NCBI GenBank assembly: GCA_963785235.1
Contig: CAWAUM010000012.1
Span: 235,995 to 299,994 of the forward strand
Source of the DNA: an uncultured delta proteobacterium
Lineage (GTDB): Bacteria > Desulfobacterota > Desulfomonilia > UBA1062
Reading direction: 5' to 3'
DNA: 64,000 bases
A program made the position numbers and the translations under genes. Below the pieces are notes generated by a model. That model searched no databases, was not told the origin of the DNA, and worked only from the letters and a program-made list of their open reading frames with translations. Below, in pieces: positions 1 through 10,031 of the stretch (position 1 is its first letter; every line of letters begins with the position of its first letter).

Positions 1-346
1 GATTTACCTTAAGGCTTGAATTTTCCCGCCCGATCTCTTCGATGACTCTATCATGATCCTTGAGCTTGCGGGCAACGTCCTTTTTCTCAAAAAGGATCTG
101 GGAGAACTCAGTATTCAGATCCTCAATGGTTTCTACAGCCCTGGCAATGGTGGCATGAGCAATGTCTTTTGATACCATGGGGGATATAACCGGTTCTTTG
201 TGGGCTGCCGGTGCAGGAGCGGTCTGCTCTTTGATCTCTTCCTGGGGCTTTATAAGTACCGGGTCTACATTCCAGGGCCTGTTGGGACGGCGCTTCTGCA
301 TCTTGGGCATCCGCTGCGCTACGCTTGTATCAAAACCGTCTTTCAT
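1..346 (-). CDS. PomX-like protein, N-terminal part (runs off window edge): basic N-terminal peptide, Pro/Ala-rich linker, start of coiled coil
   Basis: Not in the ORF track. Hand translation from ATG at 346 (AGGAG RBS upstream): MKDGFDTSVAQRMPKMQKRRPNRPWNVDPVLIKPQEEIKEQTAPAPAAHKEP...AVETIEDLNTEFSQILFEKKDVARKLKDHDRVIEEIGRENSSLKVN, open to the edge. Confidence 0.65.
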   Translation of the reverse strand, partial: MKDGFDTSVAQRMPKMQKRRPNRPWNVDPVLIKPQEEIKEQTAPAPAAHKEPVISPMVSKDIAHATIARAVETIEDLNTEFSQILFEKKDVARKLKDHDRVIEEIGRENSSLKVN

Positions 347-439
347 AGATAATAACTCCTCATTTCAATCTATTGGCATCAGAAAAAGATCCAATGCCCT
401 TCAGGTTGCTTCCGAGCACTACGTTAACCATAAAACCGA

Positions 440-1399
440 TTAAAAAACAATCGGGAGATTGGGAAAAACCTCCCGAATAAAATCATTCAGATCTACCGAG
501 CCTCTGTTCTTCGGTGCATACTGCGTAATAGGTATCCCTACACTCGCAGCCTCGGCAATTTTTATGTCCTGGCGTATCAATGTCTTCATAAGATAACCAT
601 TATAGTGCGTCTCCAATGCCTCTTTCGCCCGCTGGCAGATATTGTGGGATGCATTATAGTTATTCAGAAAGATATAGATATTCTCAAAGATGAATTCAAA
701 GTCTTCCTCAATAGTCGATAACGTCTCGAAGAGGATCTTAAGCCCATGGTAAGACAGAAAATCCGCCAGAACCGGTACAAAAAGATCATTGCAGGCCAGG
801 ATGCCGTTCAGATTCAACAAGCCGATGGATGGCGAGGCATCCATGACGATAACATCATAGTCATTCTGGATCGCGGTTATACTCTTTCTCAGGCGCTGCT
901 CACGGGCATTCATGGAAGTGAGAGCCAGTTCCACCGGAGAGAGGTCGAGGTTTGCAGGGATAAGCTTCAGATTTTTCATCTTGGTATTTATGATAATGTC
1001 GCGAATGTCAGTCTTCTCGATAAGGACACTATATAAGGTGTTTTCAATGGAATCATGATCGATCCCGAGACATTGAGTGAGATGGCCCTGGGGATCAAGG
1101 TCCATGAGGAGTACCTGCATGCCGAGCTGAGCCAGCCTGAAGGCATAGAAGGCCGAACTGCTCGTCTTGCCTGTTCCCCCTTTAAAGTTGAGGAATATCT
1201 GTCTCCTTTTGGATGCTAACAAGGGAGGTTTTCCGAGGCTCTTGAGATAAAAGGGGATATCATGCGGATAATAGATACGGACGCCATCAGCAAGCTGGGG
1301 TTGAGGGAGTGTTCCCTCAATCTCCATTTTCAACAGGGACGGCTTTGAAATCCCGAGCAATGTTGCAAATTCCTTGGCCGTATATACGGTCTGTTCCAT
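440..1399 (-). CDS. ParA/MinD-family ATPase with N-terminal HTH-like extension, PomZ/AgmE-like
   Basis: Deviant Walker A LNFKGGTGKTS, DLDPQGH, DASPSIG, and DLFVPVLADFLSYHGLKILFET, which matches myxobacterial PomZ as I recall it. Confidence 0.85.
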   Translation of the reverse strand: MEQTVYTAKEFATLLGISKPSLLKMEIEGTLPQPQLADGVRIYYPHDIPFYLKSLGKPPLLASKRRQIFLNFKGGTGKTSSSAFYAFRLAQLGMQVLLMDLDPQGHLTQCLGIDHDSIENTLYSVLIEKTDIRDIIINTKMKNLKLIPANLDLSPVELALTSMNAREQRLRKSITAIQNDYDVIVMDASPSIGLLNLNGILACNDLFVPVLADFLSYHGLKILFETLSTIEEDFEFIFENIYIFLNNYNASHNICQRAKEALETHYNGYLMKTLIRQDIKIAEAASVGIPITQYAPKNRGSVDLNDFIREVFPNLPIVF

Positions 1400-2056
1400 C
1401 TATGAGCGCTCCCTCATGATCTCCCACCAACCCTGCCACCTTGCAATAATCCACTCGAATTCCTCTGATGAAGCACCAAGGGGTTCTCCAAAATCCTCAC
1501 CCGTGAGCCTTTTTAGGGTATGCGCAGCCTGCATTCTCACTTCATGAGATGTGTCTTCCAGTGCCTGGATTACCTGCTCCACATTTTCTATGGATCCCCA
1601 TATGGCGATCAGCCTCAGACAGTCCTTCCTGACGGATTCATCCGGATCTTCTCTGCAGAGTCTTGCCACTGCGCCAAGAGAGCTCTTGTCATTCAACCAG
1701 AAAATGTAGCTGATAATCCTCCTGCGGACATAGGAGTCTGGGTCTTCAAGCCATTTGATCCCATCTTCAGGACGGAATGCGCCTCTACGGAAAAGATACC
1801 GTATGGCCCGCGCCCTCACCCTGGGGTCTTCATCCCGGGTGGCTGCATGGAAGATATTCGAGAAATCGGCCTGGGCATCAAAGAGGATGTCATAGATGGC
1901 AGTAGCCGTAGGCTTATCGGCATCTTTAAGGACCTCGGACAAAACCTTCTCTGGGTCCGGGATATCGTTGAGTATGGCCCTTGCAGCCATCTTCTTGATT
2001 TCAGGGTCTGCATCATGCAGGTCTGCGAGAATCTGGTTCAAGCCGATACCCTTCAA
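1400..2056 (-). CDS. HEAT-repeat protein (occupies the PomY position)
   Basis: Repeated D-x-D-x-x-VR-x-x-A motifs (DEDPRVRARA, DPDSYVRRR, DPDESVRKD, DTSHEVRMQA). TTG start at 2056 follows a GGGGAGG RBS (ORF open to 2104). Stop abuts the ATG of the ATPase. Confidence 0.75.
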   Translation of the reverse strand: MKGIGLNQILADLHDADPEIKKMAARAILNDIPDPEKVLSEVLKDADKPTATAIYDILFDAQADFSNIFHAATRDEDPRVRARAIRYLFRRGAFRPEDGIKWLEDPDSYVRRRIISYIFWLNDKSSLGAVARLCREDPDESVRKDCLRLIAIWGSIENVEQVIQALEDTSHEVRMQAAHTLKRLTGEDFGEPLGASSEEFEWIIARWQGWWEIMRERS

Positions 2057-2168
2057 CGAACCCTCCCCTTTTTGTATGTATGAATATAAAGGGGAAGGAT
2101 GCAATCAGTCAAGCATATCAAAGAAAAGGATTTTATCCGCTCATGACTCCATGGTAGAGCAGTCCTTT

Positions 2169-4313
2169 ATGGGAGCCCTCATAGCCGATGTAGTCATTCT
2201 TACAAACATACCCAAGATTCTCTCCTATTCTATCCCTGAAGGGGTATGCCCAAAGGTAGGTTGCAGGGTCGAAGCGCCGGTCAGGAAGGCGACAAGGATC
2301 GGTATCGTCATCGGCATCCACGAGGGAACTCAGACATTTGAAGGGTTAAAGGACCTCATATGCGTACTTGATGAGCATCCTTTCATAACATCCGAACTCA
2401 TCGAGCTCATCACCTGGACTTCGAGATATTACCATGCAGGCATAGGCCCCTGCATGGCATTAGCCTTTCCCCCATACCTCAGGGGAGGCCGAACTATAAC
2501 AATAGATATAGACCCGGTCTTATTCAGGACCGATCGCATACAAACCAAGACCGGACCTCATCAGAAGGCCATCCTTGATTCCATACCCCATACAGGCATC
2601 CGATTGAGCGACCTCAAAGGCCGTATACCGCGGCATGGCCCAGAATATGAAAGGCCTCATCAATCGCGGCCTCATTGAGCTCAAGGAAGACCCTGTCAGC
2701 TACGTCCCTTCATGCTCACCAACACCGGAGTACACCCCGGACCAGCAGATGGCTGTTCAGGAGATAAGCAAGGCCATCAAGGCAGGCAGATTCCATACCT
2801 ATCTGCTCCACGGGATCACAGGATCGGGCAAGACAGAGGTATATCTGGCAACTGCGATGGAGGCCCTCAGGCATGGCAAGTCGGTCCTCTACCTGGTCCC
2901 TGAGATCGCCCTGACACCCCAGACCATCGACATGGTCAAGAGCAGGATACCTGTAGAGGTGGCGGTGTTCCATTCAGGCCTAGCCCCAAAGGAACGGGCA
3001 AGAGAATTCATGAAGGTGGCCTCAGGTGGTGTCAACTTCGTTCTCGGTACCCGTTCAGCCGTCTTTTCGCCTTTGAAGGAAATCGGCCTCATCATAGTGG
3101 ACGAAGAACATGACCACAGCTACAAGCAGGACGACGGCATACCCTACAACGCCCGGGATCTGAGCATCCTGCGGGCAAGGAACAACCAGGCCGTGGTGAT
3201 CCTGGGCTCCGCAACGCCCAGCATGGAGACTTATCAACGCTCAAGGCTTATCCCATTCAAGCCTCATCACCATGCCGAACCGGATCGGCCCCGCAGCATT
3301 GCCGACAATCGAGATCGTGGATATGAGAGGAGTGGAAGGACCACTGTCGGAAAGACTCATCACGGAGATGAACCATACCGTCTCCAGGGGCGAGCAGGTG
3401 CTGCTCTTCATTAACCGCAGGGGCTTCTCGGCTGCCATGGTATGCCCGGGATGCGGCAAGGTCCTCAGGTGCAAACGCTGCGACAGGAGCCTCACCTACC
3501 ACAAGGCCAAAGGTTTAGGCCTGTGCCACTGGTGCGGCTTTACCATGAAATTGCCCGAGATCTGCCCTTCGTGCGGGTGTCTCGACATGAAGCCCATAGG
3601 AATGGGGACGGAACAGGTCATAGCTTCAGTGGAAAAGACCTGTGCGGATAAGCGCCTGATGCGTATGGACTCGGACGAGATAACGAGTGCAGCGAAATTG
3701 ACAACCGCCCTCGATTCCATCAGGGCCGGCCATGTGGACATCATTGTGGGAACCCAGATGATCTCCAAGGGGCATGACTTCCCCAATCTTACCCTGGTGG
3801 GGGTGATTTATACCGAGCAGCTTCTGCATATGCCCGGACTTCAGGAGCCTGGAAAGGACCTTCCAGCAGATAGTCCAGGTAGCCGGGCGCGCAGGCAGAC
3901 GGAAGTCCGACACCAAGGTCATCATCCAGACCCTTATCCCGGACCACCCGCTTATCCACTCGATTTCACGCTATGATTATCTCTCCATGATAGAAATGGA
4001 AAAGGAGATCAGAAAGGCAACAGGCTTCCCGCCATTCTCCCACATGGCCAGGTGCGTGATCACCTCCATGAAAGACAAGACTGCGCGGGAGTTCTGTACT
4101 CAGATTGCATCGGTTGTCAAGATACAAGGCGTCGAAGTTCTCGGTCCTGCCCCGGCCCCCATTTCGCTTTTAAAGAACCGCAACAGATGGCATATTATTT
4201 TGAGATCCAAGAATAGAGGCTCTCTTCACAAGGCCCTTGACATCATTGAACAGGTCCCATGTCCGAAGGAAGCGGACCTCAAGATCGATGTTGACCCTTA
4301 TTCCATGATGTAA
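2169..4313 (+). CDS. priA: Primosomal protein N' (PriA), split by about four frameshifts (probably sequencing errors)
   Basis: Consecutive ORF fragments carry GITGSGKTEVY, DEEHD, LGSATPS, CxxC zinc knuckles, GTQMISKGHDFPNLT and C-terminal IDVDP. Confidence 0.9.
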
Positions 4314-8312: not shown

Positions 8313-9035
8313 GGAAGATATCCTCCCTTAATGTCCTGTCCGCAAAGGCCCTGCCGATTAACACGGCATCATAGCCAAAGGTTCTGAGTTCAATAAGCCT
8401 TGTCCCTGATGTTATGCCGCTCTCGGCAACCTTAACCGCATGAGTAGGGATATACCCGCAAGCTCTTCGTGTCTTACAGGGTCAACCTGAAGGTTTTTCA
8501 GGTCCCTGGAATTCACGCCGATGATCTCTGCACCCACTGCAATGGCCTTGTCCAGACCATCCAGGCCGTGGACCTCCACGAGGCAGTCCATGCCCAGGTC
8601 CTTCCCGCATGCATACAGGGCCTTGAGCTCTTTCAGGCTCAACATCTCGGTTATGAGCAGAAAGGCATCGGCACCCAGGGCACGGCCGGTCTTGATCTGC
8701 CGCTCATCCACAATAAAGTCCTTCATCATGACCGGCAAAGAACAGCTTGCACGGATGATGCCGATGTATTCGAGACAACCTGCAAAATACTCCGGCTCGG
8801 TGAGACACGAAATGGCGCTTGCGCCAAGCCGTTCGTAATCGCGTGCAATGGTTGCCGGGTCATCGGTGATCCCGAGCAGGCCGTCCCTGGGTGTGGCATA
8901 CTTCACCTCTGCAATAACAGCCATACCATTCAAGGCAGCCTTGAAGGGTCTGACCGGGAAGGGATACCCTGCGGGTAGAATAAGCCCTGCCGAGCGTTTT
9001 TGCGAGAGCCTGTACATCTTGTCCAGAAAATCCAT
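8278..9035 (-). CDS. trpC: Indole-3-glycerol phosphate synthase (read in frame with TrpD; C-terminal frameshift near 8455)
   Basis: VIAEVK, SCLTEPEYF, KDFIVD, LVEVH, IIGVNSRDL; the shifted frame continues VKVAESGI...DAVLIG to TGA at 8278. Confidence 0.88.
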
Positions 9036-10031
9036 GGTTACTGCCCTGGCTCGCTTCAGGGCATTAAGGGCCTCCCCGTTTTTGATCACCTTTGCCGCCA
9101 TGACCACTCCATCCCTGATCCCCACCGTGCCGTCCACGGCCATAAAGGCTGCAGCCGCATTCAGGAGCAGGCTGTTCAGGCATGCACCTTCGAGCTTACC
9201 ATCGAAAAGGTCTTTTATCTTCTGTGCGGATTCCATGGGAGACGCTACCTTGAGGTCTTCCATGGACATGCATGCAAGCCCGGCCTGCTCGGGCGTAATC
9301 TCACCTTTTGTGATCCTGCCGTCAGAGAGCCTTGCATATCTGGTGGGTCCGGCAATGGATACTTCATCGAGCCCGCTGTGTACTACCATGGCACCCTTGA
9401 GCCCCATGTTCTTCAACACCTCGATGATGGGGTCAACCAGGGATGCCGCATAAACGCCTATGACCTGATTGGTTGCGCTGGCAGGGTTTGCAAGCGGGCC
9501 CAGGGTATTGAAGATGGTGCGGATCCCCAGCTGCTTCCGGGCCGGCATGGCGTACTTCATGCTCGGATGATAGGCAGGTGCAAACAGAAAGCAGAAACCC
9601 TTTTCCTGAATTGCCCTTGCGGCATCATCCGGTCCAAGGTCAATGGGCACGCCCAGCGCCTCCAGGCAGTCGGCACTCCCGGAAGAGGAGCTCACGGACC
9701 GGTTGCCGTGCTTGGCAACATTGTATCCGGCCCCGGCCATAACAAAGGCCACGGCAGTGGATATGTTAAAGGTAGAGGCGCCGTCTCCGCCTGTTCCGCA
9801 CGTGTCTACAACCATGTCACACCCGGTTTTCACCGGCAGTGCCCTGCTGCGCATGACACGGGCCGCTGTCTCGATCTCCTCTGGGGTCTCCCCCTTGATC
9901 CGTAGCGCAGTGAGGAACCCGCCTATCTGAACATCATTGGCCTGGCCTGACATGATCAGATCAAATGCGTGTTCCATCTCTGCGGGGCTCAAGTGTTGTC
10001 CTGAGATCAATTTTTCAAAAGACGCCTTCAT
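9036..10031 (-). CDS. trpD: Anthranilate phosphoribosyltransferase (no in-frame stop before trpC)
   Basis: DTCGTGGDG, NISTA, KHGNRSVSS, RTIFNTLGPLANP. Confidence 0.93.

Follow-up and report, generated by a model that had tools for sequence, protein, structure and literature searches.

Organization of the locus

We analysed a window of 64,000 nucleotides (G000:C12:235995-299994) from a Desulfobacterota genome of the class Desulfomonilia. At its beginning lie three co-oriented genes, all on the minus strand, for a HEAT-repeat protein, a ParA-type ATPase and a third protein (gene 3), in the order given by a preliminary description of this DNA, which had read them as a three-gene division-site positioning cluster like the PomY, PomZ and PomX genes of Myxococcus xanthus. 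Gene 3 leaves the window, and both it and a small fourth gene (gene 4) were completed from the genome beyond. The features are listed below.

2083..2112, minus strand: sigma-70-type promoter-like site upstream of the HEAT gene (10/12 consensus matches; sites of this kind are no more numerous in the region than expected by chance)
2062..2066, minus strand: GGAGG ribosome-binding site of the HEAT gene
1400..2056, minus strand: HEAT-repeat protein, 218 aa, TTG start behind GGAGG (Pfam HEAT_2, 5e-19)
440..1399, minus strand: PomZ-family ParA/MinD ATPase, 319 aa (AAA_31, 1e-45)
1163..1183, minus strand: deviant Walker A motif of the ATPase, residues 73-79
1..346, minus strand: PomX-like gene 3, first 115 of 255 codons
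281..346, minus strand: putative ATPase-activating N-terminal peptide of gene 3, codons 1-22 (ungapped alignment to the PomX peptide)
G000:C12:235573-236340 (L001 11579-12346): whole gene 3, 255 aa
G000:C12:235350-235583 (L001 11356-11589): gene 4, outside the window, 77 aa

The ATG of the ATPase gene abuts the TAG of the HEAT gene (1400/1399), as had been described; 93 nt separate the ATPase gene from gene 3, and gene 4 overlaps the gene 3 stop by 11 nt. Ribosome-binding sites are present before the HEAT gene and gene 3. Upstream, priA diverges from the cluster, and downstream a sensor kinase/sigma-54-type response regulator pair (labelled from sequence) converges on it. No division gene adjoins the cluster on either side, and no chemotaxis genes were seen among the immediate neighbours.

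A hairpin of 10 pairs followed by a T run (window 451-476, minus strand) overlaps the last ATPase codons. It is kept in close relatives and is weaker or absent in distant ones; it might adjust how much ATPase is made relative to gene 3 product, or could be due to chance. The priA gene (window 2091-4313) is split into four frames here but forms a single 719-aa frame in a close relative (L002), so the split probably comes from assembly indels. The trpC end of the 8412-10031 frame also appears shifted. RNA runs contained 5-8% of the words, and on contigs of relatives 26 of 30 bins were covered in one run; because these contigs had no DNA control, such coverage does not show transcription.

The ATPase and its relatives

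As a reference we used locus L150 (genome G464), which encodes a PomY of 682 aa, a PomZ of 319 aa and a PomX of 404 aa and has G62, D90, K268, K13 and R15 as published for M. xanthus. When 36,324 six-frame segments of the host genome were searched with Myxococcus PomZ, the top match was the 319-aa ATPase (45% identity over 315 aa, 2e-95), and the next was the ParA beside parB (3e-42). Both ATPase motifs quoted in the preliminary description were found in this protein, whose N-terminus has a PomZ-like extension of about 60 residues. Walker A residues K73, G74 and K78 correspond to K61, G62 and K66 of PomZ, and K280 corresponds to K268; all five of the PomZ residues compared (K61, G62, K66, D90 and K268) are kept. 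Since G62, D90 and K268 are common to ParA proteins, they are necessary for a PomZ but not diagnostic of one. In the pockets taken from published models (bioRxiv 2025.12.01.691545, available text), 6 of 13 residues of the PomX-peptide pocket are identical to PomZ and four more are conservative, and the PomY alpha5 pocket is identical at 6 of 8. The pocket residues that differ are E256G, Q271E and E275V, with loss of the acidic E256 and E275.

Two trees also grouped the ATPase with PomZ and apart from Soj/ParA. The first, a quick IQ-TREE run of 75 rows, joined 17 Desulfobacterota and 23 myxobacterial sequences as two sister groups (SH-aLRT 100). The second was a careful run of 38 rows that left out most long branches and added seven distant representatives, found by a profile search of 1.84 billion proteins, and three Desulfomonilia-class relatives. 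It recovered a 27-row clade without Soj/ParA (support 100/97) that contains a Desulfobacterota group (99/96) and a group of myxobacterial sequences plus one protein labelled Riflebacteria (98/94); the branching order of the two groups was not separated. The host ATPase was not nested among the sampled myxobacterial sequences. From these comparisons, membership of the ATPase in the PomZ clade appears firm, and direct sisterhood of the Desulfobacterota and myxobacterial PomZ groups is not firm.

Five proteins (P0182, P0184, P0188, P0189 and P0194) also belong to the PomZ clade but fall in neither group; one of them carries the label Riflebacteria, and three have long basic, coiled-coil N-terminal extensions. 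A MipZ family search matched in 14 of 14 controls and so does not discriminate.

The closest ATPases in other loci are 87-99% identical to that of the host. Relatives are mostly labelled 'chromosome partitioning protein' or 'ParA family protein' in their source records, with one already named PomZ by an automatic UniRef label. These labels, and the fact that our trees contained no named ParC, leave some room for an ordinary Soj/ParA or a chemotaxis ParC with unrelated neighbours, but the best-match search, both trees, the conserved PomZ residues and the PomX-type peptide encoded next door make this very improbable. The host also has a separate parAB pair elsewhere, with its own ParA beside parB, so the ATPase is not the chromosome-partition ParA. 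It likewise scores far below the MinD cut-off.

The host and the spread of the cluster

An RpoB tree (FastTree, 29 rows; two of 30 genomes had no match and one fragment was left out) placed the host within its own family (support 100) and class (98); the nine Myxococcota rows lay apart from it (98). In line with the preliminary description, the host is not a myxobacterium but a Desulfomonilia-class member of the Desulfobacterota; its genome is 93% complete with 0.45% contamination. Records of the closest ATPases include some titled Desulfomonilia, Thermodesulfobacteriota or delta proteobacterium and two titled Bacteriovoracaceae, one of which is assigned to the host's genus. The titles of these records, together with cluster names, are the basis for the class name Desulfomonilia. 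Although some related records are labelled 'Deltaproteobacteria', 'Myxococcota' or 'Bacteriovoracaceae' at NCBI, we give almost no credence to a myxobacterial host or a contaminant contig, given the RpoB placement, the low contamination and the recurrence of the same cluster in 50 of 51 genomes of the host's family; the records examined for this family are metagenome-assembled.

Across a sample of the phylum, the ATPase had a match (E up to 1e-60) in 14 of 301 genomes: the host itself, 3/3 genomes of its family, 8/9 of family f13, and the single genomes of families f5 (1/1) and f9 (1/1). The class sample, in which the ATPase was present in those 50 of 51 genomes, gave only a distant relative (33-38% identity) in 18 of 69 genomes of the sister family. 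We collected 40 loci from the host's family (30 from the class-sample search, plus 8 and 2 others). The HEAT gene was found in 39/40, gene 3 in 39/40 and gene 4 in 38/40, with the misses at contig or locus ends, and because the gene order recurs in these 40 loci it is not due to chance. In f9 the cluster has three genes only. The host's family, f13, f5 and f9 do not form one clade by RpoB, yet their ATPases do, a distribution that may reflect either descent from an early ancestor followed by losses, or horizontal exchange inside the phylum. In a sample of the Myxococcota (the phylum of G302), 134 of 251 genomes matched the ATPase at 44-49% identity (E up to 1e-60); this count, and no other, includes the unpublished genome G500.

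In five f13 loci (L169-L171, L176 and L177) the HEAT gene is preceded by a small gene of ribbon-helix-helix-like type. The sister family (f2, loci L246-L250) has a deeper PomZ-like ATPase (34-37% identity) with no HEAT gene upstream; the gene that follows it encodes a protein of 100-150 aa that starts with a basic peptide, contains a PW motif and ends in a hydrophobic stretch. Since the neighbours of these deeper relatives are small proteins that appear to be anchored in the membrane, division need not be the function of the wider family.

Gene 3 as a PomX-like protein

Gene 3 had been described from its first part as a Pro/Ala-rich coiled-coil protein. Both elements are present in the whole protein, although the Pro/Ala part is short, covering residues 20-68 at 31% P+A (43% over 156 residues in PomX). 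In the structure model, a short helix at the N-terminus is joined by a disordered linker (17-60, modelled at low confidence) to a single helix (62-253), and the coiled coil aligns with that of PomX at 94.5% probability in the same starting register. The N-terminus and the activating peptide of PomX can be aligned with no gap: F5, V9 and P14 are kept, position 12 is R or K, and the net charge is +4 (+5 in PomX). PomX K13 and R15 are the two required residues in M. xanthus (PMC7993993, available text), and gene 3 has M at position 13 and keeps a basic residue, K, at position 15. It also carries a conserved PW motif that is added relative to PomX.

A profile built from 28 myxobacterial peptides and fixed to the start codon ranked gene 3 first of 47,688 candidate starts from 9,804 frames (27.3, next 17.5); when free shifts were allowed it was second. 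Other searches did not connect gene 3 with PomX. Pairwise BLAST of the M. xanthus-type PomX and PomY against the host matched neither neighbour of the ATPase gene, and unanchored PomX profiles of the peptide and the coiled coil either missed gene 3 in the host or gave it rank four, below generic coiled coils (ZapB among them). The reverse search from gene 3 missed PomX in five of five myxobacterial genomes, and an Atlas search of gene 3 returned generic coiled coils only. Peptide, Pro/Ala linker and long coiled coil together make gene 3 PomX-like; for the linker and the coiled coil, the support from sequence is weak.

Two PomX-like paralogues in tandem, each with an N-terminal peptide, were seen in f13 (L166-L171, L176 and L177) and f5 (L174). 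In seven of the eight f13 loci and in f5, a short gene 3 paralogue lies between the ATPase gene and the long copy, and it is this short paralogue that carries the PW motif, which in the host sits in the long copy. Such an arrangement is possibly a two-activator design unlike that of Myxococcus.

The HEAT protein and PomY

The HEAT protein is modelled as an all-helical, 13-helix solenoid (pLDDT 93). It is colinear with the HEAT part of PomY over 191 columns (profile match 99%) and corresponds to the middle third of PomY only, lacking the N-terminal coiled coil, the disordered tail, alpha5 and the C-terminal globular domain. Profiles for the PomY coiled coil and globular domain matched in none of 15 Desulfobacterota loci; in myxobacterial loci they matched in 33/34 and 30/34, respectively (in-sample), and no locus lacked both. 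We found no convincing match to these outer parts elsewhere in the host genome. The short form is not an assembly error, since the length is constant (216-218 aa) in 39 loci.

These missing parts have known roles in M. xanthus. In vitro, the coiled coil is both necessary and sufficient for PomY condensates; full function depends on all three parts of PomY, and a PomY lacking the coiled coil marks no constriction sites (PMC10307791, available text). The second-activator function of PomY lies in residues 496-682, with alpha5 and the globular domain (bioRxiv 2025.12.01.691545, in the text available).

Orthology with PomY rests on position more than on sequence. A search of the host with the PomY HEAT part found the 218-aa protein second, behind another host protein, and the HEAT profile found PomY first in two of five myxobacterial genomes (ranks 1, 1, 3, 7 and 9). 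Because HEAT repeats align generically, such matches are ambiguous. The two also differ in charge, with a pI of 5.1 (acidic) for the HEAT protein and 9.0 (basic) for the PomY HEAT part. It could be that Pom orthology is confined to the ATPase and gene 3 and that a HEAT gene came independently to occupy the place of PomY, as the inconsistent best matches in both directions, the generic alignment of the repeats and the opposite charge would allow. Against this, the ATPase gene has a HEAT gene immediately upstream in all four Desulfobacterota families that have the ATPase and in 34 of 34 myxobacterial loci, the match is colinear throughout, and 5 of 34 myxobacterial PomYs already lack one outer part. 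We regard independent recruitment as improbable.

The PomY coiled coil is absent or barely visible in L157 and L155, and L158, L163, L178 and L179 are without the globular domain. Judged by these profiles, PomY is modular within the Myxococcota too.

Gene 4

Gene 4 encodes 77 aa, with a conserved N-terminus of 25 residues and a short coiled coil. We considered it as a homologue of PomX, PomY or ZapB, but profile probabilities were 2-9%, and ZapB lies elsewhere in the host. Its N-terminus was likewise rejected as a mimic of PomY alpha5 (score 4 vs 40; 5% of random 9-mers score as high). The alpha5 motif itself is absent from 28 myxobacterial PomYs although the PomZ pocket is kept.

Other division regulators

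The host has one ftsZ, on G000:C13, and DivIVA and ZapB are present. MinC_C and MinE had no match in the host genome (93% complete), and none of 14 proteins scanned reached the MinD cut-off of 213 bits, the two MinD-like ones scoring 125 and 102. Within the phylum sample, MinC had no match in 275 of 301 genomes, so its absence from a host genome of this completeness says little. None of the 14 Pom-bearing genomes is among the 26/301 with a MinC match, but this mutual absence is weak evidence because MinC is rare in the phylum.

A proposed reduced Pom system

The locus holds a PomZ-family ATPase, a gene 3 with a PomX-type peptide and layout, and the PomY-PomZ-PomX gene order, conserved throughout the host's family. 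In these respects the proposal of a Pom-type system in a Desulfobacterota host stands, although similarity of the flanking genes to pomX and pomY is partial, the HEAT protein lacks two PomY parts with proven roles, and the described set of three genes has gained a fourth. We put at a little better than even (a probability of about 0.55) the reading that the cluster is a reduced Pom machine that places the division ring at mid-cell, using a PomZ-family ATPase, a PomX-like protein and a HEAT-only PomY-like protein. The FtsZ ring as cargo and the role in division are inferred by analogy with M. xanthus.

On this model, ATP-bound ATPase dimers would bind the nucleoid non-specifically, through K280 as PomZ does through K268. 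Gene 3 product would self-assemble via its long coiled coil into a scaffold, and its basic N-terminal peptide would trigger ATP hydrolysis, upon which the cluster would travel along the nucleoid until it reaches mid-cell. Bound to this scaffold, the HEAT protein would serve as an adaptor, and FtsZ might be recruited through it, through gene 4 or by the ATPase itself. With neither the coiled coil nor the activator tail of PomY, the system would have one activator instead of two, and it would recruit FtsZ either in the absence of a PomY condensate or with gene 4 standing in.

The main alternative is a Pom-derived, nucleoid-guided machine that would position a complex other than FtsZ, bound by way of the HEAT protein or gene 4. 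What the HEAT protein lacks are the segments of PomY linked to condensates and to stimulation of the Z-ring, no division gene adjoins the cluster, members of the wider PomZ-like clade have different partners, and ParA/MinD ATPases position many cargos (bioRxiv 2025.12.01.691545, available text). The same source reports that PomZ interacts with FtsZ in two-hybrid tests, which speaks for division, as do the retained three-gene order and HEAT core; presence in 50 of 51 family genomes fits a housekeeping role, and no alternative cargo gene is linked. We think a different cargo unlikely, though it carries real weight.

If the cluster is a reduced Pom machine, the Pom system may predate the myxobacteria, with a simpler, single-activator and condensate-free form positioning the Z-ring here and the PomY coiled coil and second activator added later in the myxobacterial line. 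We offer this history tentatively, at odds somewhat short of even.

PomXYZ has been placed in the Cystobacterineae or the myxobacteria (PMC7993993 and bioRxiv 2025.12.01.691545, available text). Our literature search, which further covered the available text of PMC4672049, PMC3910319, PMC4429545, PMC11271474, PMC11407121 and PMC11318664, found no publication on Pom genes in Desulfobacterota; supplements and the distribution data of Treuner-Lange 2013 and Schumacher 2017 were outside its scope. What is new is a conserved, non-myxobacterial variant of Pom, and its interest lies in what it lacks. PomXYZ is among the few positive systems for division-site selection and a showcase bacterial condensate. 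A natural version without the condensate-forming and second-activator parts makes it testable, with four small soluble proteins, whether FtsZ recruitment needs phase separation and why PomZ has two activators. The cluster is also a candidate means of selecting the division site in a phylum in which most of the genomes searched gave no MinC match.

Comparison with known systems

MinCDE and MipZ are negative regulators of Z-ring placement with a ParA/MinD-family ATPase core. The cluster is unlike MinCDE in that the host has no detected MinC or MinE and the ATPase falls far under the MinD cut-off. With Soj/ParA of parABS systems, the ATPase shares the deviant Walker A fold, a basic DNA-binding residue and about 30-36% identity; it differs in belonging to a separate clade and in having no parB beside it, the parAB of the host lying elsewhere.

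The M. xanthus Pom system differs from the cluster in its host, which here is non-myxobacterial, and in the fourth small coiled-coil gene found here. Its PomY (682 aa) has the coiled coil, tail, alpha5 and globular domain that are absent from the 218-aa HEAT protein, and its PomX (404 aa) has K13 where gene 3 (255 aa) has M, and is without the PW motif. The two systems are alike in the order of HEAT protein, ATPase and coiled-coil protein, in an ATPase that shows 45% identity along its full length and shares the extension and the catalytic and DNA-binding residues, and in a gene 3 with an N-terminal peptide, a Pro/Ala linker and a long coiled coil.
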